From: an uncultured Actinomycetota bacterium
GTDB lineage: Bacteria; Actinomycetota; Actinomycetes; JAHEKZ01
DNA length: 64,000 nt
Direction: 5' to 3'
NCBI GenBank assembly: GCA_963829525.1
Contig: CAWHIJ010000003.1
Coordinates: 1,280,001-1,344,000, forward strand
Under the pieces are notes generated by a model. It saw nothing but the letters and a program-made list of their open reading frames with translations. It had not been told where the DNA came from and searched no databases. Below, piece after piece: positions 45,713 to 60,425 of the stretch. Position 1 is the first letter of the stretch. Each line of letters starts with the position of its first letter. The position numbers were made by a program, and so were the translations under genes.

Positions 45713-46009
45713 CTTGTTATGTCGAAGCCGCAGGTCAGGGCGCTCCGAGGATCTACGTCAACTGCCGGAATGTTGGTTTGACAGCTACAACTGATTAGAG
45801 CGAGCGAACTGTGCCTCTGCACTGGAGGACATCAATGCGGCGGAGCCTAATCCATTCGCGTCTGTTAGAACGAGGACAACAACCACGCTGAGGGGTCAAG
45901 AAAGCACGCTGTGTATTCAGGACAACGATTTCTTGGTGCTGCTGACCAAAGACCCCTTCCTTTGGGTGGGAACCGTTGCCTACGTTGGTTCTCGACGAAA
46001 GAGGGAATC

Positions 46010-48226
46010 ATGAAGCGTGTACCAGTTCGAAGGTTCGGCGTGGCGCTCGGCATGGCACTGGTCGCTTTGCAACTGGGCACACTGAACCTCGCCCCAGCTG
46101 ATGCAGCCACACCGACAATGATTCGAGTGATCGTCGCGGTCGACCCAGGACTGCCAGTGACCGCCTCCGCCACTGCTCAACTGCACGCAGCCGGCGGGCA
46201 GTTACGCTACGCCTTTCAACGTGTCTATCACGGTTACGTTGCCGACATTCCAGCAACGGCAGAACGAGTGCTAGTGCAGCAGCCTGGCGTGCGGACGGTG
46301 TCCCTCGACGCCATCGCATACCCCGCCGATGTTGAGAGCCCCGCCCCTTGGGGACTTGACCGGGTCGATCAACGCTCACTCCCTCTAGACCAGACGTACG
46401 CGTACGGAGACACCGGAAGCGGCGTCACAGCCTATGTCGTTGATACAGGTATCCGCACCACCCATGTCGACTTTGGTGCCCGTGCCTCCAGCGGCTGGGA
46501 CTTCTATGACAATGACGCGGACGCGTCGGACTGCTACGGACACGGTACACACGTAGCCGGCACCATCGGAGGCAGCACCTACGGTGTGGCGAAGGGTGTG
46601 AAACTCGTCGCAGTGCGGGTCTTCGGCTGCAGCGGCGGCTCGCCCTACTCGACCGTCATGCAGGGGCTCGACTGGGCGGTGGCTAACCACACGGGACCGT
46701 CGGTCATCTCCATGAGTCTTGGTGGTGGCTACTACCAGCCGATGAATGACGCAGTCTCAAACGCTACGGCTGCTGGCGTTCCCGTAGTCGTCTCCGCGGG
46801 TAATGACAACGCCGATGCGTGTAATAACTCTCCAGCCAGTGCCCCCACCGCCATAACTGTCGCGGCCACGGACGAAACAGACACACGTGCCAGCTTCTCG
46901 AACTACGGTTCATGCATTGACATCTTCGCTCCTGGTGTGGGCATCGAGTCAGATTATTATCTCGCTGACGACAGCGTGGCTTCAATGAGTGGCACTTCGA
47001 TGGCGACCCCACACGTAAGCGGTGCTGTTGCGGTATACCTTTCGTCGCACCCGAACGCAACTGTCAGCGAGATCACATCGGCGATCATGAGCTCTTCGAC
47101 GCAAGGCGTCGTCACCGATGCGCAGTCGACGAACAGCGGCCTGTTGTACGTCGCGCCGCCGGCAGCGACTCCAACAGTTCCTACAAATGTGGCTGTGTCG
47201 AAGAATGTGGGTGCGGCGTCGGCGACGGTGAGTTGGCAGCCGCCGGTGTCTTCTGGTGGGTCGGCGATTACTGGGTATCGGGTGTCACGGGATGCCGGGA
47301 GCATCGCCGGGCAGAACCCGTGGTCCACGGTGGTGTCGGCCAGTGCTCGGTCGTTTACGTTCACCAGGTTGACGCTGAACTCTACCTACACCTTGTCCGT
47401 GCAGGCGATCAACGGGTCGGGTGAGGGTCCGGCTGCATCGCAGCAGGTGACGATGAGTGCGGATGTGCCGTCAGCGCCGACGAGTGTGTCGGTGTCGAAG
47501 AATGACACCGCGAAGACGGCCAGCATCAACTGGCAACCGCCCACCTCGACGGGTGGTTCGGTGATCACCGGCTACCTCGTGTCGCGTGATGCAGGCTCGC
47601 TGCCTGGGCAAAACCCGTGGTCGACGGTGGTGACCCCTTCCACAAGGTCGTTCACGTTCACCCAGTTGTTGTCCGGTTCGACCTACAAGCTGTCGGTGCA
47701 GGCAATCAACGGGACGGGGACCGGCCCCGCAGCCAGCGGCACCGTCACGCTGGGTCAGGTGGTCACCACGAACCTGTTGAAGAACCCTGGCTTCGAAGCT
47801 GATGGCAACGCTGACGGTCGCCCAGACAGCTGGACGTCCAATGCGAAGTTCACCCGCTCCAACACCTCCATTTACACGGGGAGTTACGCGGGACGTCACC
47901 GGGCCACCGACAACACCAACCACACCATCGGCCAGGTGGTGGCCTCGTTGACACCCGCAACGACCTATTTGTTCAACGGCAAGGTCAACATCCCCGCCAC
48001 CAGTGACACCTTCACCTTCCTGATCCGGGTGCAGTGGTTGAACAGCACCGGGGGTGTCATCCGCACCGACGCCATCCGCAAGTTCACCGCAGCGACCGGT
48101 GGTTGGACCGACGCCATCGGTGGCATGACCAGCCCCACCGGCACCGCCAAAGCCAAGGTCCAAATGGTGTCCACCAACCTCAACGCCACCATCTACGTCG
48201 ACGACTTCAAACTCACCCGAAACTGA
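46010..48226 (+). CDS. Secreted S8 subtilisin-like protease with propeptide, two FN3 domains and a C-terminal CBM-like domain
   Basis: Signal peptide, WGLDRVDQ, triad VDTG / HGTHVAG / GTSMATPH, two FN3 units, NLLKNPGFE...YVDDF. Confidence 0.93.
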   Translation: MKRVPVRRFGVALGMALVALQLGTLNLAPADAATPTMIRVIVAVDPGLPVTASATAQLHAAGGQLRYAFQRVYHGYVADIPATAERVLVQQPGVRTVSLDAIAYPADVESPAPWGLDRVDQRSLPLDQTYAYGDTGSGVTAYVVDTGIRTTHVDFGARASSGWDFYDNDADASDCYGHGTHVAGTIGGSTYGVAKGVKLVAVRVFGCSGGSPYSTVMQGLDWAVANHTGPSVISMSLGGGYYQPMNDAVSNATAAGVPVVVSAGNDNADACNNSPASAPTAITVAATDETDTRASFSNYGSCIDIFAPGVGIESDYYLADDSVASMSGTSMATPHVSGAVAVYLSSHPNATVSEITSAIMSSSTQGVVTDAQSTNSGLLYVAPPAATPTVPTNVAVSKNVGAASATVSWQPPVSSGGSAITGYRVSRDAGSIAGQNPWSTVVSASARSFTFTRLTLNSTYTLSVQAINGSGEGPAASQQVTMSADVPSAPTSVSVSKNDTAKTASINWQPPTSTGGSVITGYLVSRDAGSLPGQNPWSTVVTPSTRSFTFTQLLSGSTYKLSVQAINGTGTGPAASGTVTLGQVVTTNLLKNPGFEADGNADGRPDSWTSNAKFTRSNTSIYTGSYAGRHRATDNTNHTIGQVVASLTPATTYLFNGKVNIPATSDTFTFLIRVQWLNSTGGVIRTDAIRKFTAATGGWTDAIGGMTSPTGTAKAKVQMVSTNLNATIYVDDFKLTRN
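47171..47752 (+). repeat. Tandem FN3 domain duplication (297-nt period)
   Basis: GTGTCGAAGAAT at 47195 and 47492; both units share VSRDAGS..GQNPWSTVV..RSFTFT.L...TY.LSVQAING. Confidence 0.9.
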
Positions 48227-48424: not shown

Positions 48425-48604
48425 ATGTCGAAAGGGATGACCTATCTTATCGCGGCCAGGACGAACACAATGCCGAGAATCTGCCTGACGCCGTTGGAGT
48501 CCGTCGAGATCGACGTCGCGAACGTGGTCATTGTGGCGCTGTTCGTTCTGGACTACCTGTTACGGCTGTGCCTTGCTCCGGCGCGTTGGCCGTTTGGCAG
48601 ATAG
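48425..48604 (+). pseudogene. Remnant resembling a voltage-gated K+ channel S2 segment
   Basis: 59-aa ORF ending ANVVIVALFVLDYLLRLCLAPARWPF, like the FxxDYxxRLxxA motif; overlaps the TetR 3' end. Confidence 0.5.
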
Positions 48605-49254
48605 CCCGGTGCAACCAGCAGCAGGAGCAGACCATCGGTCAGCCATGCCTCGTATCGCTCGGGGGACCACCCCTGCTCCACGACAAACCGGTGGTAAGGG
48701 CCGCTGTCGTTGAGCAGCCAGAGGACGTCCGCCGCTTCCTCGACTGTCAGTTCCGGTCGGAGCGCGCCGCGCTCGTCCAGCAAGGCTGCCAAAAAGGACA
48801 TCCCTCGCTGACGCTGAGTGCGCAGGTCGTCGTTGAGCGCCTGCAGATCAGCGTCTAGGCCGGCCGCGGACTCCAACACCCGTGCGAGGGCCGCGGTGCG
48901 ACCCATCACCTCACGAATGTTCGTCGCAAAGTCACGCAGAATGCGTCGGGCGTCTGGCTCTTGCAGCGCCGCCTGCACATGCGGACGATCGAGCACTGGG
49001 ATGGGTTCGTCATCGCCGGAGATGGCCCAGTCGAGAGCCAGCTTGAGCGTCTCGAGTTTGCCCCCCACGGCCGTGAACACCGTTTTTCGGCTTACCCCGG
49101 CAGCCTCGGCGATCGCGTCGATCGACGTGCCGCCATAGCCCCGCTCAACGAACAACACCGCGGCCGCGTCGACGATCGAACGACGTGTGGCCTGTGCCTG
49201 GGCCGCACGCAAGGTCGACGAGTAGGGCCTCTTGACAGATTTTGAGGAAACCAT
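48553..49254 (-). CDS. TetR-family regulator
   Basis: TRRSIVDAAAVLFVERGY..TSIDAIAEAAGVSRKTVF; GWSPERYEAW. Confidence 0.92.
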   Translation of the reverse strand: MVSSKSVKRPYSSTLRAAQAQATRRSIVDAAAVLFVERGYGGTSIDAIAEAAGVSRKTVFTAVGGKLETLKLALDWAISGDDEPIPVLDRPHVQAALQEPDARRILRDFATNIREVMGRTAALARVLESAAGLDADLQALNDDLRTQRQRGMSFLAALLDERGALRPELTVEEAADVLWLLNDSGPYHRFVVEQGWSPERYEAWLTDGLLLLLVAPGYLPNGQRAGARHSRNR

Positions 49255-49314
49255 CAGTGTATTGAATACCCCAGCAGTAACTTCACCATTAAACCGTAGC
49301 AGTTGGAGGCCCAT

Positions 49315-50640
49315 ATGCGCACTGTTGTCGTGGGAGCAGGACCGGTCGGGCTTTACTGCGCGATGGCCCTGGCGCGGCAGGGGGAAGAGGTCACGGTGAT
49401 CGACCGTGATCCAGGTCCGGTTACAGGTGGGGCTTGGCGACGGCGCGGGGTCATGCAGTTCGCTCATCCGCACTACTTCCGCCACCTGGTGCGATTGGCG
49501 CTGCAGGACCAGCTGCCGGACGTGTGGGAGCAGTTGCTCGCCGTGGGTGGAATTGAGGCGACCTTCGAGGGTGGCCCTGAGTTCCTCAGCGGCCTGCAGT
49601 GCCGACGGTCGACGTTTGAGAGCGTCCTCTGGCGCGCGGCAGCGCGTGAGCCCGGGCTGACGGTGCGCTGCGGCCTGGTGCGCAGTCTCGTCACGACCGG
49701 CGGCCGCGTCTCGGGCGTCGTCGTTGATGGCTCGACGGTGGATGCCGACCGAGTCATCTGCGCAACCGGCCGTGGCAGCAGTCTGGGTGACGGCCTACGT
49801 GCACCGGGGAAGGAGTCGTCGTGCGGGTTCTCCTACGTTGCGCGGATGTACCGGGCTCGCCCCGGTGCGCCATGGCCAACTTGGGCGCTGTCCGGCCGGG
49901 TCTACGACGGCTACCAGGCGATCCTCTTTCCGCACGACGATCGCACCCTCTCGGCTCTCGTCGTGCTGCCCACGGAGGACACCGTGCTCGGGCAAGTGCG
50001 GGGGACCGATGCTTTCAACGTGGCTGCCTCGCTTATCCCGCAGCTGTCTCCATGGACCGATCCCGACGATTACGAGCCGATCACGAAGCCGATGACCGGG
50101 GGACGCCTGACCAACGGCTATCGCGGGCAGCTTGGCCAGAACGGTGAAGCGCCGGTCGCCGGCGTGTATTTCGTAGGTGATGCGGTATGCACCACTAACC
50201 CGGCCGCCGGCCGGGGAGTTTCTCTGGGCCTGCAACAGGCCCAAGCACTGCTTGCCATGCTCGCAGACACGGACGCCCGGAACACCAGTCACCGATTCGA
50301 AGCCTGGACCGACGAGAACGTGCGGCCCTGGTACGAGGACCACGTGCTGTGGGACGCCGAACTGTTGCAGCGCTACGCCGGCGCCGAAATGGATATCGAA
50401 GGCCCACTGAGTTCTGATGTCTTCTGCACCGCGGGCGAGACCGAGCCGTCGCTTGCGCCTGTAGTCGGCCCCGTTCTGGGAATGCTCACGACGCCGGCCT
50501 CTCTCACCACGATCGACAAACACGTGCGTGGAATGCTGCGTCAAGGCTGGCGACCCGCCTACGCGACAGGGCCAACGCGCGATGAACTTGTAGAGCAATT
50601 AGGCGCCCTCGGCGCCGCGAGACTGCAACCGACTGCGTAG
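49315..50640 (+). CDS. FAD-dependent oxidoreductase
   Basis: VVVGAGPVG, ATGRGS, VGDAVCTTNPAAGRG; GGAGG RBS; divergent from TetR. Confidence 0.9.
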   Translation: MRTVVVGAGPVGLYCAMALARQGEEVTVIDRDPGPVTGGAWRRRGVMQFAHPHYFRHLVRLALQDQLPDVWEQLLAVGGIEATFEGGPEFLSGLQCRRSTFESVLWRAAAREPGLTVRCGLVRSLVTTGGRVSGVVVDGSTVDADRVICATGRGSSLGDGLRAPGKESSCGFSYVARMYRARPGAPWPTWALSGRVYDGYQAILFPHDDRTLSALVVLPTEDTVLGQVRGTDAFNVAASLIPQLSPWTDPDDYEPITKPMTGGRLTNGYRGQLGQNGEAPVAGVYFVGDAVCTTNPAAGRGVSLGLQQAQALLAMLADTDARNTSHRFEAWTDENVRPWYEDHVLWDAELLQRYAGAEMDIEGPLSSDVFCTAGETEPSLAPVVGPVLGMLTTPASLTTIDKHVRGMLRQGWRPAYATGPTRDELVEQLGALGAARLQPTA

Positions 50641-50655
50641 GTCCGCTTACACACC

Positions 50656-51033
50656 TTACGAAGCCTCCGTCGGGGCTGTCGTAGCCTTCGCCAGCGGCTC
50701 CAGATGGTCAACATTCGAGTGCACGACGCCAGCCGGCCAGTCGATGTCACGAATGGCGTTCCAGGCTAAGAAGCCCGAGTCTCGGTGCAAGGTCCGGACA
50801 ATGATGCGCACCAACCACGGTCCCTGGGTGGGTTGTCGGTCATACCCGAGAAGCGCTCCTGTGTGCCTCTTACCGACGACCAGGCCAGCGACCATCAGCT
50901 CAGTTCCAAGTCCGGCACCCTTACCGGTCGGTCCGAGGCGAATGTCCTTAACGACTCCCAGTGGAGATCCGTCACTGGTGACAATGGCGAAGCCCAGAAG
51001 ACTACTGATCCGGTGGGTGCTACTTGGGGTCAT
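50656..51033 (-). CDS. PRC-barrel-like protein
   Basis: ISSLLGFAIVTSDGSPLGVVKDIRL; AGGAG RBS. Confidence 0.75.
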   Translation of the reverse strand: MTPSSTHRISSLLGFAIVTSDGSPLGVVKDIRLGPTGKGAGLGTELMVAGLVVGKRHTGALLGYDRQPTQGPWLVRIIVRTLHRDSGFLAWNAIRDIDWPAGVVHSNVDHLEPLAKATTAPTEAS

Positions 51034-51412
51034 GCCGAGCTCCTGGAATTCGGTCAATGATGTGGGTCGCGACCCAGACCTCGCCGTCTGACTCTGGCAC
51101 CCTGCGCCCGACATGGACGGCACTGTCGATCTTGATGATGTCCGACATTGGTAGGCGCTGTGGTTCCGGATCTGCATCGCGGTGGAGGCGACTCCAGATC
51201 GCGGCAATCGACTCGCCAATCCTGCCGCCAAACCGTGGCCCCAAAGCCCCTGGCCCCATGAGAACGGCGGAAACGCGCAACCCCCCGCGCCCGTCAGACT
51301 CAAGCTCGAGGTCGTCCACCTTCCCGATGAGTCGCCCATCGACATCGACCAACTGCCGGTCCAAAAGGTGCAAGGCCGCGTCATAGGCTCGACCAGCAAC
51401 TGGAGCGGACAT
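51020..51412 (-). CDS. PRC-barrel-like protein
   Basis: LLDRQLVDVDGRLIGKVDDLEL, GPGALGPRFGG. Confidence 0.78.
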   Translation of the reverse strand: MSAPVAGRAYDAALHLLDRQLVDVDGRLIGKVDDLELESDGRGGLRVSAVLMGPGALGPRFGGRIGESIAAIWSRLHRDADPEPQRLPMSDIIKIDSAVHVGRRVPESDGEVWVATHIIDRIPGARHDPK

Positions 51413-52641
51413 CACTGCCCCGCCTTCGTGATGATCATCAGAGGGATCGCGGCGGTACTGGCGACCACGACGAGCACCAAGTATATCGACCCAAGGAAGT
51501 TCGCACCCCGTCTGTTGACTCGATCCCCCATGTAGTCGGGATCGTTGGCTACCACCAGGATGGGGAAGTAGGTCAGGGGCAAGGCAAGGGCCGAGAACAC
51601 CACGGAGTACTCGGTCACTTTGATGGGGTCGACTGTAGTCAGCAGTACTGCCACCCCAAGGATCGTCGAGACTAGCAACACGGCGTGAAACTGGGCCGCC
51701 TGCATCGGACGCACAAACTTCCCCCATTGCCACCCGCAGTACTGCGCGATGCTGTATCCCACTGACAGTCCCGTTTCGCACGCGGCACCGAACGTTGCTG
51801 CGAAGAACCCGATGAGAGCAACTGCAAGGCCCAGCTTTCCAAGCGACACCACTACGGGGAGGGCCACTTGCCCCAGCGTGTCTACTTGCACTCCGAGAGG
51901 GAACAGCACGATGGCGGCACACGCCGCTATCGCCAGAGACAGCATGCCACCCAGTGGAAATCCAACGAACACGTTTGAGCGCATCATCCCGATGCTCTTT
52001 CGTGTCCACCCCTCCTCGACGCCCCCCGACGAGAAGAAGAAGACCTCGTACGGGGTCATCGCGGCACCGAACAGCGCGATCGCGTAGTACCAATAGGTCG
52101 GCCAATCTTCGCCGCCGGGCGGGCTCGGGGTGGTCGTCTGCTCCCAGAGGACATTCCAGTCAGGAGAGAGGTGCCAGACGGCAGCAGCGAAGACAATCAG
52201 AGCTAGACCCAATAGCCCGAAGACGTTCTCGATGGTGCCGAAAGTGACTCGCCACAAGACCAGCCAGACTGCGAAGCCCACGAGCGGTATCCAGAGCAAG
52301 TCGTTGACACTGGTTGCCAGTGCAAGCGCGAGCGCCACGCCACCGATTTCCGCCACGAACGTGAGGAACGTGACTGCTACCGACCCGATGAGATTCGCGA
52401 ACCCCACCCTCGGCCCCAAGCGTTCACGAATAAGGTCAAACGTTGGGCGCTGACTGATCGCTGACACGCGGCCTGACATCTCGGCGAACACGCAGATCCC
52501 AACCACGCCCACGACCACGACCCAAGCGAGGGACATTCCAAAGCGAGATCCCACCGCGGCGTTGGTCACCAGGTCACCGATGTCGACGAAGCCACCAATG
52601 GCAGTGAGCACGCCGAGTGCAACCGCAAACAGCCTGTTCAT
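51412..52641 (-). CDS. NRAMP-superfamily divalent cation transporter (divergent motifs)
   Basis: GGFVDIGD, EMSGRV, GAAMTPYE, many TM segments. Confidence 0.82.
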   Translation of the reverse strand: MNRLFAVALGVLTAIGGFVDIGDLVTNAAVGSRFGMSLAWVVVVGVVGICVFAEMSGRVSAISQRPTFDLIRERLGPRVGFANLIGSVAVTFLTFVAEIGGVALALALATSVNDLLWIPLVGFAVWLVLWRVTFGTIENVFGLLGLALIVFAAAVWHLSPDWNVLWEQTTTPSPPGGEDWPTYWYYAIALFGAAMTPYEVFFFSSGGVEEGWTRKSIGMMRSNVFVGFPLGGMLSLAIAACAAIVLFPLGVQVDTLGQVALPVVVSLGKLGLAVALIGFFAATFGAACETGLSVGYSIAQYCGWQWGKFVRPMQAAQFHAVLLVSTILGVAVLLTTVDPIKVTEYSVVFSALALPLTYFPILVVANDPDYMGDRVNRRGANFLGSIYLVLVVVASTAAIPLMIITKAGQ

Positions 52642-53096
52642 CGCAGCGGCTCTCTCACCGCGTCTGAGCGGACCAACAGGCTCTGAATTCGGGCGAGCGC
52701 GGAACGCATTCCCTGTGCATCATCGCGACGGATGACGATCCTTGCTTGGGATATTGCATCCTCAACCTCGCTCAGAAAACGCATCGTTCGTCTTTGAGCG
52801 CCATCCGTGGAGACGGGCGGCTGTACCGCTCGAAAGGAGGCGGCCACTGAACCGGCCGCCGTCTCAGCCTCGCTGACTATCTCGTCGGCGGTAGTAGCGA
52901 GGACGCGATTCGCGATCGCCAATTCCAGGACCACTCGCGTTGTTTGCAGTTCACTCTCATCCGCGGTAACAGACTGCAATGCCTGTTGTCGGTAGTGATC
53001 GGCATTAAACGCGGGCGAAACGCAGGCCGTGAGGCTCAACAGCAGAACCGCAAAACCTGTGACTGCAGATGCCGCCTTACGCCGGGTCACAGCCAC
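52638..53096 (-). CDS. Putative lipoprotein
   Basis: Basic N-terminus, hydrophobic core, lipobox LTAC; ATGA overlap with the NRAMP gene. Confidence 0.7.
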   Translation of the reverse strand: MAVTRRKAASAVTGFAVLLLSLTACVSPAFNADHYRQQALQSVTADESELQTTRVVLELAIANRVLATTADEIVSEAETAAGSVAASFRAVQPPVSTDGAQRRTMRFLSEVEDAISQARIVIRRDDAQGMRSALARIQSLLVRSDAVREPLR

Positions 53097-53682: not shown

Positions 53683-53955
53683 ATGCCAGGTCGATCTGAG
53701 CCCGGACCTTCGGTTAAGGACAAGGAACTGTACGAAAAGCTGCGCGAGGAGGGGAACAGCACGCAGAAGTCCGCACGCATCGCGAACGCAGCTGCCTCGA
53801 GCTCGCGCACTGCCATAAGCCGAAAGGGAGGCCGGGCTACGCCTTACGACGATTGGGGCAAGAAGGCGCTCCTCAGAAGAGCTCGCGAAGTGGGGATCAA
53901 GGGGCGGTCCACGATGACGAAGGCCGAACTGATCAGTGCACTCCGAAACAGTTAG
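53683..53955 (+). CDS. Small basic protein with Rho_N-like C-terminus
   Basis: PSVKDKELYEKLREEG..KSARIANA, AREVGIKGRSTMTKAELISAL; AAGGGAG RBS. Confidence 0.85.
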   Translation: MPGRSEPGPSVKDKELYEKLREEGNSTQKSARIANAAASSSRTAISRKGGRATPYDDWGKKALLRRAREVGIKGRSTMTKAELISALRNS

Positions 53956-54517
53956 CGAGCCCCCGATCTGGCGACCGGACCTGCCGCGTCACGACGGCAG
54001 GAAGAGAGGGACAAGCGGCCCGCTCGGAGCCCAAGAGCAGCGTGAGGATCAGGGACGGCACGCAAAGGTTCGTCACAGCCACGTATGCCGGTAGCGCCAC
54101 CAAGAGCAGTGCGTTGGGCCAGAAGAGCCAACCGGCGTCCACGGCGAGCGCGACGCCAGCGACGAAGAAACACACAGCACCGAGGAGGCAGCCGAACCGA
54201 CGCCCTGCGCGGTTGGGTGGCGGTGACACTCGGCCCTGTCGGACCGTCCACCAGGAGTAGAGCCACTCGACGGGGTGGTACCGGGTGGCAGCGCCAACTG
54301 TGGAGGCGAACGCAAGGGCGAGGTAGAGGCCGGGATCGGCGACGAGGATTGCTAGCGCACCGAAGGCGGCGCACTGCGCCGGGCCAAGGCGGATGGCCCA
54401 ACCGGCTGCAACCGCTTGCTCAAGTCGCGGGCCACGCTGCCCTTGGAGGCGCAGCAAGCGGCGGTTCCTGTCGAAGGTCGGATCGGTGAGGATCAGGCGC
54501 GCATCGTCGGTGTACAC
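53933..54517 (-). CDS. DUF4395-like membrane protein
   Basis: RRFGCLLG...TNLCVPS; AAAGGA RBS before GTG 54517. Confidence 0.65.
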   Translation of the reverse strand: MYTDDARLILTDPTFDRNRRLLRLQGQRGPRLEQAVAAGWAIRLGPAQCAAFGALAILVADPGLYLALAFASTVGAATRYHPVEWLYSWWTVRQGRVSPPPNRAGRRFGCLLGAVCFFVAGVALAVDAGWLFWPNALLLVALPAYVAVTNLCVPSLILTLLLGSERAACPSLPAVVTRQVRSPDRGLANCFGVH

Positions 54518-54560
54518 ATCGTTGTCCTTTGCAGGTGGATACGGGTAGTGGCAGCGGTCG

Positions 54561-55301
54561 TCATCGCGCAGGGGCAAAGGCTTCCTGGCTCCACCATTGC
54601 GAGAAAGTCGACTCGCCCACCTGCGCGATGAGATGTGTCGTCTGTGAAGCGTGGGCTCGCAACGCGGCTAATTTGCGTGCTGCCAAGGTGTCGTCGCAGC
54701 GCTGAAGGTGGACCACCGCGGACGTCGGAACCGCGCGTGGTGCTTGAGGTGTCATCCAGACGCCGAGGTCGTCGCAGAGCTCGCCCCACTGGTCGAGAAA
54801 CTGTTCGGTGAGTGCGGCGTGCCACAGCTCGCCGCGTCGTCCCCTGGCGGTCCACGCTTCGGTGACCCAACGTGAGACCGCTCGGTGGTCGGGATGACCG
54901 GTGAGGCCATCCGGACCGAAGGTGACGACCAGATCCGGGTCGACAGATTCCAGCAAGTCCGACACCAGTCGGCGACCGCGAACCACGGGAACGTCAGCCA
55001 AAGTTCCGTCACGCAGATCCTCGGCCAACCAGTGGTGCTCGGTGACCCCAAGTGTGTCGAGACTGGCTGCGAGCTCCGACTCGCGTAGCGGCCCCAGCAC
55101 GTCCGGCGGAAGCAGATCAGGGTCGTCGGTGCCACCTTCACCACGGGTCGCCGTAGCAACGACAACTCGGTGGCCGGCGTGCACCGCAGCTGCCATGAAT
55201 GCCGCAGACAGATACGCCTCGTCGTCCGGGTGAGCCCAGATACCCAGGATCACCCGCGACGCAGCGGCGGGATGGAACATGCGCGAGATCGATGTCGTCA
55301 T
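54561..55301 (-). CDS. PIG-L/LmbE family deacetylase
   Basis: AHPDDE, ATRGEGG, TFGPDG..GHPDH, AHASQ. Confidence 0.9.
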   Translation of the reverse strand: MTTSISRMFHPAAASRVILGIWAHPDDEAYLSAAFMAAAVHAGHRVVVATATRGEGGTDDPDLLPPDVLGPLRESELAASLDTLGVTEHHWLAEDLRDGTLADVPVVRGRRLVSDLLESVDPDLVVTFGPDGLTGHPDHRAVSRWVTEAWTARGRRGELWHAALTEQFLDQWGELCDDLGVWMTPQAPRAVPTSAVVHLQRCDDTLAARKLAALRAHASQTTHLIAQVGESTFSQWWSQEAFAPAR

Positions 55302-55308
55302 GGCCAGG

Positions 55309-55340
55309 ACGCTAGATCGGTGTCCTTCCTCGATCCTTCC
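55309..55340 (-). promoter_or_regulatory. Repeat-type promoter P1 (PIG-L, leaderless)
   Basis: GGAAGG-atcga-GGAAGG-N9-TAGCGT-N7-ATG. Confidence 0.75.
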
Positions 55341-55367
55341 GCGCGGAAGGCTCCCCCAAATGCACGA

Positions 55368-55399
55368 GGAAGGTGGCGGGAAGAGGCGCTTCTTAGCGT
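55368..55399 (+). promoter_or_regulatory. Repeat-type promoter P2
   Basis: GGAAGG-tggcg-GGAAGA-N9-TAGCGT. Confidence 0.75.
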
Positions 55400-55437
55400 C
55401 GCTCCTGTCAGTCCACGAATCTAGATCGGAGTGCAAG

Positions 55438-55755
55438 ATGGAGCACAACCTGAAGCGCGAGTTGGCGAGCGTCGGCCCTATGGTCACGGCGCACGACCTC
55501 GCGCACGCTATTGCCGACGACGGAATCGGTCCCCACGAGCAGACGCTGCTCTGGATGGCGAAGGGCGCCGCCCGTGAAGGGGTGTCGCCAACCTTGCTCG
55601 CGGCAATGCTGGATCAGACAGCGGCCGAGGTGCTTCGGCAACGTGCCTTCGGTGCCGTGATCAGGGCCATGCAGAATCCTGCCCGCCGATCCGAGGCCGT
55701 CGAGGCGCCACCAGCGGCGCCGCCTCACGGTGAGCAGGAACGCGAGGCTTCGTAA
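55438..55755 (+). CDS. Hypothetical helical protein
   Basis: GGAG RBS, ORF downstream of P2; AIADDGIGPHE...EVLRQRAFG; start could instead be 55480. Confidence 0.65.
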   Translation: MEHNLKRELASVGPMVTAHDLAHAIADDGIGPHEQTLLWMAKGAAREGVSPTLLAAMLDQTAAEVLRQRAFGAVIRAMQNPARRSEAVEAPPAAPPHGEQEREAS

Positions 55756-55879
55756 GAGGGGGAGGCGCCGGGACGGGACTGCCACGACAAAGTGATTGCA
55801 GCGCGGCTGCCTCCTTGCCATGATCGGGTGGGGACGCGGTGTCACTTTGTGGAACCTACGTCCCTGATCGGAGACCCGG

Positions 55880-58800
55880 GTGAGCAAGTCCGACGTGCGT
55901 ATCACGCTCCTCGGTGATTTCTCTGTGGTCGTCGACGGAGTGACTGTTGACCCAGCCGAGTGGCGTCGGCGCCAAGCAGCGGCCCTGGTCAAGGTACTGG
56001 CGCTGGAGCCAAGACATTCGCTGCACCGCGAGCAGGTCATCGACGCGCTGTGGCCCGACACCGACCTTGAGGCTGCGGCAGCACGGCTCCACAAGGCAGC
56101 CCACTTCGCCCGCCGAGCACTGGGCAATCAGGAATCCGTCGTCCTCGGTGGTGACAGCGTCTCGCTGTTCCCTGGGGTTGAGATCGAGACTGACCTGGCG
56201 CAGTTCGAGATGCTTGCCAAAGACGCAATTGGGGAACGGGACAAGGAACTCGCCGCCGCGGCGGCTGACGCGTATGTGGGTGAGCTCCTCCCGAAGGACC
56301 CGTACGAACCGTGGACGGAGTATCCACGTCAACGGGCTCGGTTGCTGTACCTGGACGTCCTTCGCGTCGCCGAGCGTTGGCGCGAGCTCGCCCTTGCCGA
56401 ACCGGCAGACGAAGAAGCGCACCTGCGGCTGGCTGACTCGCTCGCTGAGGCGGGGGACCCACGCGCTGCGCTGCGTGAGCTCGAGCGCCTCGAACAGGCT
56501 CTGAGCCACGAGCTCGGGGTCGCGCCCAGCGCCGCCGTGTTCGACCTTCGCGAGCAGCTCGTCGCCGCGGCAGAGATGGAGGTCGGCGGATCTCCGGCCG
56601 AGCCCGTTCTGGTTGGCCGCGAGTCGGAGGTTGCCGCAGTAGAGCGTGTGTTGGCTGGAGTCCACCGAGGCGAGGGCCAGACCCTCTTCGTCAGTGGCGA
56701 CGAGGGCTTGGGGGCCTCGACGGTGCTTCGCTGCTTGACCGAACGGGCGTCCCGCGCCGGATTGCGCGTCGGCGTTGGAGTTGCGGCCCGGGTAGCGGGG
56801 GAGTGGCCCTACGCCCCCGTTCTCGAAGCACTGTCAGAGTTGTGCCGCCGAGACCCGTCGCTTCTCGAGGGGTTGACTCCTCAGATGCGGGCCGAGATCG
56901 GTGACGCGCTCGCGGGGCATCGGACGGCCTGGGATGGACAGGGCTCACACCAGCGGCTCTTCGTCGCCGCCGCAGAACTGTTGCGACTGGCGGCTAGCGA
57001 TCGCGGTGCGGTCATTGTGGTCGATCAGGCGGAAGAGGCCGACGAGGCCACTCTCCGACTGCTGCACTACTTGTCTCGAAATACCTTGGGCGCTCGTGCC
57101 CTCATCGCGCTGGGTCATCGACCCGTCGAGGGCGGAGGCCTTGCCGAGTTACGGGCAAACTTGAGCAGTCGCGGCCGGGCTGTGATGCTCGACTTGGCGC
57201 CACTGGGGCGAGATGAGGCCGTTCGACTCGCCTCGACGTTGGCGCCAGACGCGAACGACTCCGTGCTCGAGGCCATCTTCCAGAAGTCAGGAGGTGTGCC
57301 CTTCAGCGTCGTCGAGCTCGCAGGCGCTTGGAATTTAGACCCGGACGTCGCAGACCCAACTGTTCACTTGACCTCAGGACTATCAGCGGCGGCGACACGA
57401 GCCTTCGGCAGGGCCGCCGTGCTCGGAGGGTCATTCGACACCGACGAGCTCTCGACGATGGTCGATGCGCGGGACCCCGAGGTGTTCGGGCTTCTCGATG
57501 AGGCCCTTGCGAACCGGGTAATCCGTCGCACCCGCACCGGCTATGCCTTTCGCCATCCGCTGATCCGCGAGGCGCTCGTTGCCACCATGGGCGAACGTGA
57601 ACTGCGCACGGCTCACCGCGACGCGGCGCGAGCCCTGCAAACTCTGCAGAGATCGCCTGCTCAGATCGGATACCACCTGGTCGAGGCCGGGGACGAGGTC
57701 GACGCCGTTCCGTGGATGTTGGACGCCGCCGAGACAGAGGCGGCTCACGGTGCCTATCGGGACGCACTTGTTGCGCTCGAGAAGATCGAGGTGGCTGCCG
57801 AGGGTGCTCAGCGGGCTCGACTGCTGGAGCTACGGGCCGACCTCTTGCTGGCCTGCGGCGAACTCGCGGTCGTCGACGCGTACCGCGCAGCACTCGCGGC
57901 ATGCGACGTCGAGAGCCGGGCGCGACTGCTGACGCGCTTGGCTCGAGCCGCGACGCTGACCGGTGACCTCGACACCGCCTCCCTCGCCTTGTCCGAGGTC
58001 GACCTCGATGGCAGCGAGAACGACGTCGAGCTGCTCTTGGTACGGGGGAACCTGGCCTTCCTTCAGGCGGACTGGTTGGTCGCTGACGAGGCAGCGGGAG
58101 AGGCCCGATCCCGCCTCACACTCGAGGGAGGAGAGAGATGGCAGCTCTTCGAGCTCGTTGCGCTCCAGGGGTTGCTTGCCCACCGTCGGGGAGAGTGGTT
58201 TCAGCGGCTGCGCACCGAGCTTCGCGCGGGAATGGCGCGCCCCGAGCTGGCGGTAGGCATCTTCGACTCCCACCTTTGCGTCGCTGAGTACCTGCTCTAC
58301 GGCCCCACCCCATACGACGAGGTGCTGGAGCTTGCCGAGCAGCTTCGTACCTCGGCGCAGCAGGCCGGAGTCTTACGAGCTGTCGCCTTCGCGACGGCGT
58401 TACGAGGGGAAGCTGCGCTGCTGAAGGGCGATCTGGACCTGGCCGAGAACGAGCTGCTCGAATCCGGTGACCTCCACCACGACCTGGGCTCATCAGCAGG
58501 GGAGGCGCACTCGCTGCAACGCCTTGCCGAGCTGCAGCTGGTACGTGGAGACCGCGACACCGCCAATGCCCTCCTGTTACGAGCCCTCCCTCTGGCGCGG
58601 TGGTCCCCGATCGGGTTGCACCTGCTGCAGCGCATCTACGGATCGATGATCGCGGCCGCTCCGGACGCTGAGGCTGCCCGCGCCGTCGTCGACCGGGCTG
58701 AGGCGACGCTCGCGACTGAGGACGAGTGCCACTTCTGCACGATCATGCTCGACCTACCCGCGGCGCGGGCGTGCATCGACACCGGCGAGTTGGACCTGGC

Positions 58801-59017
58801 AGCGAAGTACCTGGCCAGCGCCGAGACCTCTGCACAGCTGTGGGAGGGCACGTCCTGGCAGGCGGCGCTGCTTGAGGTGCGCGCACACCTGGCGCGGGCC
58901 GAAGCCCGTACAGGTGAGGCGCGGCAGATGCTCACCGACGCGGCGAACCTCTTCGAGGCTGCAGGACAGCCGCTGGACGCCGCACGCTGCCGGTCGGAGG
59001 TCGACACCGCGGCCTGA
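55880..59017 (+). CDS. SARP/AfsR-type regulator: wHTH-BTAD, AAA-like domain, TPR-like helical region
   Basis: ITLLGDF...LVKVLAL...REQVIDALWP, ELGVAPS, LVGRESE, SGGVPFSV, FRHPLIREAL. Confidence 0.92.
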   Translation: MSKSDVRITLLGDFSVVVDGVTVDPAEWRRRQAAALVKVLALEPRHSLHREQVIDALWPDTDLEAAAARLHKAAHFARRALGNQESVVLGGDSVSLFPGVEIETDLAQFEMLAKDAIGERDKELAAAAADAYVGELLPKDPYEPWTEYPRQRARLLYLDVLRVAERWRELALAEPADEEAHLRLADSLAEAGDPRAALRELERLEQALSHELGVAPSAAVFDLREQLVAAAEMEVGGSPAEPVLVGRESEVAAVERVLAGVHRGEGQTLFVSGDEGLGASTVLRCLTERASRAGLRVGVGVAARVAGEWPYAPVLEALSELCRRDPSLLEGLTPQMRAEIGDALAGHRTAWDGQGSHQRLFVAAAELLRLAASDRGAVIVVDQAEEADEATLRLLHYLSRNTLGARALIALGHRPVEGGGLAELRANLSSRGRAVMLDLAPLGRDEAVRLASTLAPDANDSVLEAIFQKSGGVPFSVVELAGAWNLDPDVADPTVHLTSGLSAAATRAFGRAAVLGGSFDTDELSTMVDARDPEVFGLLDEALANRVIRRTRTGYAFRHPLIREALVATMGERELRTAHRDAARALQTLQRSPAQIGYHLVEAGDEVDAVPWMLDAAETEAAHGAYRDALVALEKIEVAAEGAQRARLLELRADLLLACGELAVVDAYRAALAACDVESRARLLTRLARAATLTGDLDTASLALSEVDLDGSENDVELLLVRGNLAFLQADWLVADEAAGEARSRLTLEGGERWQLFELVALQGLLAHRRGEWFQRLRTELRAGMARPELAVGIFDSHLCVAEYLLYGPTPYDEVLELAEQLRTSAQQAGVLRAVAFATALRGEAALLKGDLDLAENELLESGDLHHDLGSSAGEAHSLQRLAELQLVRGDRDTANALLLRALPLARWSPIGLHLLQRIYGSMIAAAPDAEAARAVVDRAEATLATEDECHFCTIMLDLPAARACIDTGELDLAAKYLASAETSAQLWEGTSWQAALLEVRAHLARAEARTGEARQMLTDAANLFEAAGQPLDAARCRSEVDTAA

Positions 59018-59044
59018 TTCGCCAAACGAGCGCGCACTTTCCCG

Positions 59045-59239
59045 CTACCGACTCAAGGACGCGAGCGGAGCGGCGGCGGTGCGGAGAGTCGATTGCAGCA
59101 TTGCCGTGCGCATGCGACGACGGGCTCGGCGGCGCGACCGGTGTCGGGCGAAGGCCTCGCGCCGGTGGTGGGCGTAAGGATCGGTCAGAGCCTGGGTTCT
59201 GGTGTGGGTCGTGTGTGCGGTGGCCATTGTGAGGGTCAT
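59045..59239 (-). CDS. 64-aa His/Arg-rich hypothetical protein
   Basis: GGAGAAGGA RBS plus ATG, downstream of P3. Confidence 0.6.
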   Translation of the reverse strand: MTLTMATAHTTHTRTQALTDPYAHHRREAFARHRSRRRARRRMRTAMLQSTLRTAAAPLASLSR

Positions 59240-59286
59240 GGTCCTTCTCCAGTGCGGTGCCGACGGGGTGCCGACGAATGCGCTGA

Positions 59287-59318
59287 ACGCTAAGAGAATG
59301 CGGTTCCCTCAGCCTTCC
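59287..59318 (-). promoter_or_regulatory. Repeat-type promoter P3
   Basis: GGAAGG-ctgag-GGAACC-N9-TAGCGT. Confidence 0.75.
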
Positions 59319-59356
59319 TCGAGCGTGTGGTCGGCCAGATCGCGCTGTTCCCTCAG

Positions 59357-59388
59357 GGAAGGCAGAGGGAAGACCACTGGGTCAGGGT
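59357..59388 (+). promoter_or_regulatory. Repeat-type promoter P4 (azlC, leaderless)
   Basis: GGAAGG-cagag-GGAAGA-N9-CAGGGT-N6-ATG. Confidence 0.7.
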
Positions 59389-59394
59389 GCTCGC

Positions 59395-60120
59395 ATGACC
59401 ACTTCGACTCGCGATGAAGGCCACCGCGTGGCGACGACCGACCCGCGCACCGAGTTCCTCGGTGGCCTGCGAGACATGGCTCCGCTCCTGGTCGGCGTCA
59501 CCCCGTTCGGACTGCTGCTCGGCGTCACTGTTGCAGCCAGTCACGATGCCTTCGGGGCTTGGGCCGGTGCTCTGCCCATCTACGGCGGCAGCGCGCACCT
59601 CGCGGTGCTCGGGTCCCTCGACCACGGCGGCGGACTCTTCGTAGCGGCGGCGGCCGGTGTGCTCGTCAACCTGCGGGTAATCGTCTACAGCAGCGCCCTC
59701 GCTCCGCTGTGGTCGGGGAGCCGATGGTGGATCCGAGCCCTAGCGGCCGCCACCGTCATCGACCCGACCTGGGTCGTGGCCGAGCAGCGAGCCGCGCGCC
59801 CGGGGAATGTGGCGGCACGGCGCGCTCACTATGCCGGTGCAGCCACACTGCTTACGGTCGGATGGCTGGTCTTGGTCACCGCGGGTGCGGTAGGGGGTTC
59901 GATGGCCGGTGGGTCCGCCGTCCTCGGAGCTGCCCTTCCGCTTTGTCTCCTTCAACTCGTGGTTCCTCACCTGGCACGCCGTCCAGGAGCAATCGCCCTT
60001 GCGGTCGCCGTCGCCGTCGTCTTGGGCACCACGACCCTTCCTTCTGGTGTCGGTCTGCTGATCGCCATGGCTGCTGCCGGAGTTGCGGGCGTGGCCGCGG
60101 AGAGGAGGTTGGGGTCATGA
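59395..60120 (+). CDS. azlC: AzlC-family amino acid exporter, large subunit
   Basis: GLRDMAP..PFGLLLG, YGGSAHL, VNLRVIVYS. Confidence 0.82.
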   Translation: MTTSTRDEGHRVATTDPRTEFLGGLRDMAPLLVGVTPFGLLLGVTVAASHDAFGAWAGALPIYGGSAHLAVLGSLDHGGGLFVAAAAGVLVNLRVIVYSSALAPLWSGSRWWIRALAAATVIDPTWVVAEQRAARPGNVAARRAHYAGAATLLTVGWLVLVTAGAVGGSMAGGSAVLGAALPLCLLQLVVPHLARRPGAIALAVAVAVVLGTTTLPSGVGLLIAMAAAGVAGVAAERRLGS

Positions 60121-60425
60121 CGCTGTGGTTTGCCATCCTTATAGTCGGGGCCGTCAGCTACGCCTGCCGGCTGGTCCCCTGGCTCGTGCTGGACCGGGTC
60201 GCGGTCGGACCGTCAGCGGAGGCCGGCCTGCGCTACGCCGGGGCCGGCGCCATCACGGCTTTGCTGGTCGGTGCTCTCCTGCATCCCCAGACTGGAGAGG
60301 GTTCGATCCCGCCCCTGCTGTTGGCACTCGTGGTGTCCGGACTGTTGTTGTGGCGTGGCTGCCAGGAGTTTCTTGCCATCGGGGTCGGGATGAGTCTCTT
60401 CTTGGTGCTCCACCTTGCCTGGTAG
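60117..60425 (+). CDS. azlD: AzlD-family small subunit
   Basis: MTLWFAILIVGAVSYACRL; 102 aa; ATGA overlap with azlC. Confidence 0.8.
   Translation: MTLWFAILIVGAVSYACRLVPWLVLDRVAVGPSAEAGLRYAGAGAITALLVGALLHPQTGEGSIPPLLLALVVSGLLLWRGCQEFLAIGVGMSLFLVLHLAW

Follow-up and report, generated by a model that had tools for sequence, protein, structure and literature searches.

The window analysed here is a stretch of 64,000 nucleotides from an uncultured actinobacterium (Actinomycetota, JAHEKZ01; contig CAWHIJ010000003.1, positions 1,280,001 to 1,344,000). At positions 53933 to 60425 of this window, a regulator of 1045 amino acids (aa) lies between two divergent intergenic regions, each of which holds two outward-facing promoters of one direct-repeat design (P1 to P4). 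A sequence-only reading of this locus had proposed that the regulator is a SARP-STAND protein that activates the flanking genes through the repeats. The targets it named, which are a PIG-L hydrolase, a DUF4395-like protein, an AzlCD exporter and two small proteins, were identified correctly, as judged by the Pfam matches. The features of the locus are collected in Table 1.

Table 1. Genes, promoters and regulator segments of the locus (window coordinates)
Feature	Coordinates	Strand	Remarks
DUF4395 membrane protein, 194 aa	53933..54517	-	Pfam PF14340, E=1.6e-9
PIG-L/LmbE-family deacetylase, 246 aa	54561..55301	-	PF02585, E=4e-26; predicted leaderless from P1
Promoter P1	55309..55340	-	GGAAGG-N5-GGAAGG-N9-TAGCGT, ATG 7 nucleotides on; matrix 25.8 bits
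Promoter P2	55368..55399	+	GGAAGG-N5-GGAAGA-N9-TAGCGT; matrix 32.3 bits
105-aa open reading frame (ORF)	55438..55755	+	occupies the enzyme-operon position of relatives; conserved in L011
1045-aa regulator	55880..59017	+	SARP head, degenerate STAND NOD, MalT-like TPR sensor
Recognition helix codons (aa 69-79)	56084..56116	+	H71 equivalent to AfsR R87
Sensor segment with D796, C800, H914, C950, C953	58265..58738	+	candidate metal/thiol site
64-aa Arg-rich small protein	59045..59239	-	P-x3-HR motif; from P3, convergent with the regulator 3' end
Promoter P3	59287..59318	-	GGAAGG-N5-GGAACC-N9-TAGCGT; matrix 18.9 bits
Promoter P4	59357..59388	+	GGAAGG-N5-GGAAGA-N9-CAGGGT, ATG 6 nucleotides on; weak -10; predicted leaderless; matrix 18.9 bits
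AzlC-family exporter subunit	59395..60120	+	PF03591, E=1.5e-17
AzlD-family exporter subunit	60117..60425	+	PF05437, E=5.8e-13

The DUF4395 gene was found at such a locus only in the window and in a genus-mate (L011). It is separated from the PIG-L gene by 43 nucleotides, and is probably co-transcribed with it from P1. The PIG-L protein stays under the curated NCBIfam thresholds for BshB, MshB and Mca; its best score is 78 bits where 195 would be needed. The 105-aa ORF has no Pfam or NCBIfam match, and 10 homologous proteins, including itself, were found. The small ORF that had been predicted behind P3 is present, but its coordinates had to be corrected to those in Table 1 and its length to 64 aa. 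Nine members of its protein family were aligned, in which M, P, H and R are invariant, and the family occurs at this position in at least nine loci. The start of AzlD was also corrected, and is probably the ATG that overlaps the AzlC stop.

The four 32-bp elements agree exactly with the window in letters, coordinates and strands, and the distances to the ATGs behind P1 and P4 as well as the offsets of 33 and 44 bp between the inner opposed sites had likewise been read correctly. When the -10 hexamer was set at -12 to -7, the repeat hexamers were located at -38 to -33 and -27 to -22, and the -10 element was TAnnnT. The upstream hexamer is 20 bp and the 3' heptamer 8 bp from the -10, as at afsS. 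According to PMC10936776, the AfsR box spans -40 to -19 with its upstream repeat overlapping the -35 at -38 to -33, and the 3' repeats of SARP sites lie 8 bp from the -10; the spacer of afsS is given as 20 bp in PMC11301090. The 11-bp direct-repeat period just upstream of the -10 is borne out with the geometry of the AfsR box, and the marks of a SARP-dependent promoter (11-bp repeats, 8 bp to the -10, and an upstream repeat over the -35) are all present. Among 87 core sites of the family, A(-11) was found in 82 and T(-7) in 84, which is a housekeeping signature. An ATG lies 6-8 nucleotides past the hexamer in 27 of 33 PIG-L, AzlC and MaoC promoters versus none of 46 OsmC promoters, and this locates the start site by an independent route and implies that the mRNAs have no leader.

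Thirty-four distinct divergent pairs, including the two of the window (55340/55368 and 59318/59357), are 18-20, 28-30 or 37-41 bp apart. Because these steps correspond to one helical turn, the spacing suggests that two dimers touch each other or share one DNA face. The extra half-sites noted at 55345 and 59346 do exist, but their standing as a conserved feature was dropped: they occur in six of the 34 pairs, of which two belong to the window itself, and are absent from the genus-mate L011. A perfect palindrome of 16 bp at 55335-55350, made up of the upstream hexamer of P1 and the extra half-site, is not present in the genus-mate.

In the 2.96-Mb genome of the window, the pattern GGAAG.-N5-GGAA-N11-YA...T has four matches, all of them at the regulator locus, and 62 other spacer geometries give 19 matches in sum, none more than three. 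The bare repeat GGAA-N7-GGAA is not enriched in this genome (52 matches versus 32-79 at other spacings); the enrichment is limited to the full promoter design. A promoter matrix was trained on 86 sites of other genomes, with the window's own and the genus-mate loci excluded. In the genome scan with this matrix, P2, P1, P4 and P3 ranked first, in this order, and the next match scored 8.7 bits. Therefore, the regulon in the window's genome consists of these four promoters, and a wider regulon was dropped, with no site above 8.7 bits outside the locus. No GGAA repeats were found within the locus of a paralogous SARP-STAND gene (G000:C3:21598-23784), and a scan for sigma-70 promoters and terminators stayed at chance level. 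The regulator of the genus-mate is 80% identical; between the two loci, most of the repeat sequence is retained while the spacers drift.

About 150 loci, amounting to 1.41 Mb, were collected by an alignment-based scan of genomes. GGAA-N7-GGAA occurs 208 times in these loci, and other spacings 10-45 times, except N2 with 113. The N2 peak was set aside; it is mostly one minus-strand 10-mer outside the regulator gene, most likely in the coding sequence of a neighbour. Enrichment of the motif beside orthologues, as the sequence-only reading had called for, was confirmed: of the 85 loci with a complete SARP head, 65 have GGAAG-N6-GGAA-N12-A...T, and so do 51 of the 56 with at least 3.6 kb of upstream sequence. 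Four of the five long loci that miss the strict pattern score at least 20 bits by the matrix. In the genomes of the phylum at large, the pattern stays at background (20 matches in 19 of 400 genomes, two of them from the unpublished genome G178, versus 26 for the reversed control). The sensor profile matched in 19 of 401 genomes of the phylum, three of them unpublished, and thus the family is patchy.

The commonest neighbours in the 56 long loci are genes for an FAD oxidoreductase (51), an OsmC-like protein (46) and an FMO-like flavoprotein (30), followed by PIG-L (17), AzlC (12) and MaoC (9). In most orthologous loci, P2 drives an operon of OsmC, FMO, FAD oxidoreductase and the regulator, and the fullest arrangement is PIG-L, P1/P2, OsmC-FMO-FAD oxidoreductase-regulator, small ORF, P3/P4 and AzlCD. 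The window keeps this frame, with the 105-aa ORF in place of the three enzyme genes, whose orthologues were not found in the window's genome (97% complete) with the queries used. From the comparison of the loci, the OsmC-like/FMO/FAD-oxidoreductase operon is judged to be the core target of the family, lost in the window's genome. The FMO is a halogenase/monooxygenase-like flavoprotein, which is related to MSMEG_0569 (326 bits, below the cut-off of 498) and has a weak match to ArsO, again below cut-off. The OsmC-like family (e.g., L020:2838-3419) has one conserved Cys, and a Ser at what we take to be the usual position of the second Cys, and for this reason it may not be a standard peroxidase. 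In a sequence-cluster atlas, the OsmC-like protein falls only in generic OsmC, and the sensor only in unnamed or TPR clusters. A tandem run of an 18-nucleotide unit that includes the start codon lies upstream of the regulator gene in L021, and may be an assembly artefact. No paper on the family, the motif or the regulon was found in a literature search, in which subscription journals were mostly outside.

The dependence of the motif on the DNA-binding head was counted over whole loci after the removal of duplicates. Whole-locus counts were used because OsmC is not the first gene in the group with the swapped head, which makes a comparison of OsmC-upstream regions unfair there. In one clade, the same NOD and sensor are joined to a Trans_reg_C head, and the targets overlap. 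None of its 14 loci has the GGAAG design found in the 65 SARP-headed loci above; conversely, CTCCAAG repeats are present in 11 of these 14 loci versus one of the 85 SARP-headed ones. The Trans_reg_C (OmpR/CadC-like) clade (L131, L141-L144, L147, L148, L150, L069, L071 and L073) carries triple CTCCA(A)G repeats with an 11-bp period and an extra ABC transporter target, and represents a second undescribed regulon. A SARP head fused to an alpha/beta hydrolase is still accompanied by a GGAAGG divergent pair (L213). Both kinds of head occur on an alpha/beta hydrolase with no NOD-TPR part, beside AzlCD or MaoC (L213:2348-3919(-) and L071:869-2494(+)).

Residue 71 of the recognition helix predicts base 5 of the repeat, in that His or Tyr goes with GGAAG and Arg with GGAAC. 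In 16 distant regions, all 10 Arg helices were found with GGAAC and all five His/Tyr-Lys helices with GGAAG, and the one other helix has no site. The rule was tested on later data, consisting of two plasmid members and 40 regions, from which three duplicates were removed to leave 37. The two plasmid members agree with the rule, and so do all 23 new loci that have a site. The new His-Lys helices go with GGAAG in nine of 12 (one also with a GGAAC-like site) and with no site in three, and never with GGAAC alone; the new Arg-Lys helices go with GGAAC in 14 of 16, with no site in two, and never with GGAAG. Nine new helices without the Lys have neither. Helices of the QLRK and QLHK types tell the effect of residue 71 apart from that of residue 69. 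The head profile aligns residue 71 to R87 of AfsR, which contacts the template-strand backbone at -35 to -33 according to PMC10936776, and the variable base of the repeat is at -34, beside this position. SARP heads with an LHQ helix and no Cys3-His sensor (L268, L274, L278-L280 and L282) show neither of the two repeats, in a comparison that included no search for a motif of their own. The head swap, the hydrolase fusion and the residue-71 rule suggest that the motif is read by the local head domain.

An extracytoplasmic function (ECF) sigma factor, or a regulator encoded elsewhere, might read GGAA...CGT instead, as the sequence-only reading itself had allowed. GGAA and CGT resemble actinobacterial ECF promoter elements, the SigH/SigR consensus being GGAA-N18/19-GTT, and CGT ends 46 of the 87 -10 hexamers. 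However, none of the 87 core sites fits GGAA-N18/19-GTT from either repeat, and GGAA-N16-19-CGT fits only 8 and 7 of them from the two repeats. The conserved letters of the -10 are the A(-11) and T(-7) described above, and the motif varies with the head and helix residue of the local regulator and is at background in genomes at large. We regard a reader of this kind as very improbable.

In the regulator, the SARP head (aa 1-230, with the helix RLHKAAH at aa 69-75) is followed by the NOD and then the TPR sensor. Its identification as a SARP-STAND protein was upheld by the head profile, by the only Pfam match of the window protein (AAA_16, E=1.5e-19) and by fold matches. The homologue search gave 817 proteins at E<=1e-30 among 8000 scored, and BTAD (PF03704) is found on most of the 120 homologues listed. 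A family-head profile from 22 sequences matches AfsR with E=2e-12 to 5e-11 and EmbR with 7e-8, and aligns to AfsR over profile positions 32-229 (E=2e-12). The model of the regulator (mean predicted local distance difference test score, pLDDT, 86) has STAND proteins and the SARP domain of AfsR as its fold matches. The best of these is the STAND protein PH0952 (6mfv), and the head matches 8k60_J in Foldseek with a template modelling score of 0.67 by target (E=1.1e-5). The 345 C-terminal residues, modelled at pLDDT 93, are closest to MalT domain III (PDB 1hz4; Z 20.9, root-mean-square deviation 6.1 over 323 residues, 17% identity). MalT of Escherichia coli is a STAND activator that likewise combines the NOD with a superhelical TPR sensor of the same fold. 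It has a C-terminal LuxR HTH and binds maltotriose, whereas here the head for DNA binding, of the SARP or Trans_reg_C type, is N-terminal, and the sensor has a conserved Cys/His set.

Two features of the large SARPs, the N-terminal wHTH and BTAD (by profile and fold match) and the central STAND NOD with a C-terminal TPR sensor, are present. Intact Walker motifs are found in the family as a whole, but not in the window protein, which has K279A in Walker A and D383Q in Walker B; the Lys is kept in 115 and the Asp in 114 of the 120 homologues listed, and both are lost in the window copy and its two nearest homologues (P0001-P0003). No polyketide synthase or nonribosomal peptide synthetase gene is among the common annotated neighbour families, with single-locus neighbours being partly annotated. 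On these sequence and fold comparisons, the regulator is a large SARP by domain content and AfsR-like in its presumed working, which lacks the intact NTPase and the biosynthetic cluster. Some relatives of 560-580 aa have the SARP head fused straight to the TPR sensor with no AAA match. The classes set out in PMC10972967, as far as that source was available, are small, medium, large and SARP-LAL, the medium ones being SARP plus NB-ARC proteins of about 600 aa; with no AAA match, the short relatives do not qualify as medium SARPs, and their NTPase-free layout lies outside these classes.

AfsR of Streptomyces coelicolor (PDB 8hvr, 8jke and 8k60) is likewise a SARP-NOD-TPR protein, of about 1000 aa, with an alignable recognition helix, and the afs box is likewise made of two 11-bp-phased direct repeats over -40 to -19 with a 20-bp spacer. 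The repeat is CGTT(T/C)ATCGNN for AfsR and GGAAGG(T) for the window family, and the base-reading residues T88 and R92 are replaced by K72 and Y/F76. Unlike AfsR, the family has a sensor with an invariant Cys3-His set and serves local stress or modification genes rather than antibiotic control, and the window copy is without the Walker A Lys and one Walker B Asp. The SARP-LAL regulators PimR, SanG and PolR, as described in PMC5930380, are also large AAA-type regulators beside their targets, and also use purine-rich heptamers with 4-bp spacers and an 11-bp period in two to three copies. Their heptamer CGGCAAG differs, however, they belong to polyene and nucleoside clusters, and the PimR site is not over the -35; the likeness is drawn from that description.

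In AfsR, the NOD and TPR parts inhibit the SARP domain until ATP binds (PMC10936776), and an F/Y-HD latch is reported to hold the off state (bioRxiv 10.64898/2026.09.02.748808). The window family has an FRH motif at the expected position, placed by analogy, and H559 is kept. Because the NTPase is degenerate in the lineage of the window, gating there is probably independent of ATP turnover. The regulator of the window is probably still active, either gated without ATP turnover or constitutive, because all four sites are conserved despite the degenerate NTPase; a decaying relic is less likely.

By analogy with AfsR, we consider it very probable that the regulator binds P1-P4 directly and activates them, as first proposed, and this activation of the flanking genes through the direct repeats is consistent with the promoter geometry, the head dependence and the residue-71 rule. 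Two SARP heads would bind head-to-tail on GGAAGG(T) repeats near -38 and -27 in place of a -35 element, and would recruit RNA polymerase with the housekeeping sigma factor to the TAnnnT -10, like AfsR at afsS. A signal at the sensor would free the heads, one dimer would occupy each repeat pair and the polymerase would be recruited, again in analogy with AfsR. The four promoters would thereby switch on PIG-L with DUF4395, the 105-aa ORF, the 64-aa ORF and AzlCD, and where the regulator gene stands at the end of the P2 operon, the regulator may also raise its own expression. The promoter type and the activation mode are already known from AfsR and PimR, and the activation mechanism is not new.

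It is quite unlikely, in our estimate, that binding of the regulator to the repeats leads to repression, or to effects in both directions. The sites do cover the -35 region, and the negative SARP Atr32 has been reported (PMC10972967). On the other hand, there is no -35 consensus apart from the repeats, and the distance from the repeat to the -10 is fixed at 9, rarely 10, bp. Such a fixed distance matters for an activator only, and therefore speaks against a repressor.

Conservation in the sensor was examined with the aligned representatives of 150 clusters at 50% identity, of which 138-141 rows cover the residues concerned. C800 is conserved in 99% of 139 rows, H914 in 96% of 141, D796 in 91% of 139, and C950 and C953 in 96% of 138 and 140 rows, respectively. 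These five (91-99%) are the best-kept polar residues of the sensor, all are present in the window protein, and the near-invariant Cys and His mark a candidate Cys3-His site. Among the fold matches listed, no solved structure is described as a metal-binding TPR sensor. Sixteen of 28 Arg-type regions hold a gene for a peroxiredoxin, an SQR-like protein, a rhodanese, DsrE or a persulfide-dioxygenase-like MBL-rhodanese, usually in the operon behind the site, compared with none of nine regions of SARP relatives without the sensor. Two distant members of the GGAAG type drive TusA-DsrE. Members L218 (a Pelagibacterium plasmid), L270, L277 and L281 face a 1-Cys peroxiredoxin and an SQR-like gene; this pairing occurs in actinobacteria and in the alphaproteobacterium, whose member has no NOD. 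At L275:1917-5426, a divergent GGAAC pair drives a rhodanese and DUF1416 on one side, and a small ORF and an MBL-rhodanese on the other, so that this short locus is devoted to the handling of sulfur.

In the proposed mechanism, Cys800, His914, Cys950 and Cys953 would form a zinc-thiolate or reactive-thiol site that detects oxidant, electrophile or reactive-sulfur stress. We give a little less than an even chance to the view that the sensor is a switch of this kind. RsrA/ZAS anti-sigma factors (Cys3-His zinc-thiolate) and the persulfide sensors CstR and SqrR likewise use Cys/His ligands and control thiol, peroxide or sulfide genes. They have unrelated folds and are anti-sigma factors or repressors, whereas the candidate site here lies in a TPR sensor on an activator. 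In Mycobacterium smegmatis, the operon of MSMEG_0569 confers peroxide resistance (PMC6039565). This gpr operon (MSMEG_0565-0572) contains the MSMEG_0569 flavoprotein and a DsrE-like protein, and relatives of both are among the targets of the family; it is GlnR-controlled and has another gene set, and the FMO here is below the cut-off of the MSMEG_0569 family.

With the same binding and activation, the Cys3-His set might instead be a structural zinc site or part of an organic-ligand pocket, like that for maltotriose in MalT, and the signal a small molecule that is modified and exported by the targets. The sensor fold closest to MalT domain III suits this alternative, and the targets of the branch (a monooxygenase-like flavoprotein, a MaoC dehydratase, a PIG-L hydrolase and an exporter) resemble small-molecule chemistry. 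The alternative is weakened, however, by the occurrence of one conserved site with very different target sets, which most often have thiol, sulfur and peroxide chemistry in common, and by the relation of the FMO to MSMEG_0569 of the peroxide-resistance gpr operon (PMC6039565). We place it somewhat behind the thiol switch, as a possible but doubtful reading. The three Cys might also bind Ni, Cu or As(III) directly, with a regulon for metal response. Besides the three invariant Cys, the frequency of SCO4226-like nickel-binding proteins as first targets in sister branches speaks for this, as do the ArsM-like methyltransferase after OsmC in L214 and the ArsO match of the FMO, both below cut-off. 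Nevertheless, the common annotated neighbour families include no recurrent metal efflux pump or ars operon, and the peroxiredoxin, SQR and rhodanese targets fit sulfur better, so that we consider direct metal sensing unlikely.

Taken together, the explanation that we favour, with good confidence for the whole, is a large SARP activator that acts on the repeats and carries a candidate thiol or metal redox sensor. Several points weigh against it. The window regulator alone has no Pfam wHTH or BTAD match, with EmbR reached only at E=0.35, and since other residues stand in place of the Walker A Lys and the Walker B Asp, it could be mis-regulated or inactive. The strict pattern is missing in 20 of the 85 SARP-headed loci, 15 of which have short upstream sequence. 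In a quick tree of 59 sensor domains, a single event accounts for the head swap, and about two changes are needed for the G/C switch; the loci are related, and therefore the counts overstate independence. The sensor representatives were retrieved with a profile that contains the conserved Cys and His, which favours these residues. The sulfur and peroxide genes (rhodanese, SQR and peroxiredoxin) are found in sister branches but in none of the 12 new His-type regions, which lends support to the organic ligand, and the OsmC-like protein of the window's branch keeps one conserved Cys only. As for the detoxification or export response that had been suggested at first, we can still only infer it; the comparative data suggest redox or sulfur stress, and do so less clearly in the branch of the window than in its sister branches.

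Other genes of the window lie near the locus. A Nramp-like transporter operon with two small ORFs (50656-53096) and a DUF7218/Rho_N small protein (53704-53955) are located just beyond DUF4395. A divergent pair of a TetR regulator and an FAD-dependent oxidoreductase (48553-50640) is unlinked to the GGAAGG motif, and a large ORF at 45911-48226 looks by eye like a secreted subtilisin-type protease with fibronectin-like repeats.

As far as the sequence comparisons go, the family and the site it uses are new here, together with the code of one residue, the exchange of heads, the forms that lack the NTPase, and the sensor with its Cys3-His set. What induces large SARP/STAND activators such as AfsR is described as still unknown in the available parts of bioRxiv 10.64898/2026.09.02.748808 and PMC10936776. 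The family offers a tractable case, with a candidate sensor site, and with binding sites and short regulons that can be read from sequence. It has members in cultured strains, namely Nocardioides sp. JS614 (NOCA_RS00955), Pelagibacterium sp. H642 (NO934_RS19770), Kribbella, Actinoplanes, Blastococcus and Georgenia. The variants with no NTPase, a dead NTPase or a swapped head are ready-made experiments on STAND gating, and the His/Arg rule provides two near-orthogonal activator-promoter pairs. Tentatively, and short of an even chance, the members may form a family of one-component redox or reactive-sulfur sensors, in which a MalT-like TPR domain with a Cys3-His switch is joined to SARP or OmpR-type heads with the NTPase optional, and which would switch on genes for sulfide oxidation, sulfur transfer and peroxide chemistry in soil actinobacteria and in at least one alphaproteobacterium. 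If this is true, a large-SARP sensor would have a defined chemical input, the NTPase would be dispensable for such signalling, and SARP heads would have a one-residue code for DNA recognition.

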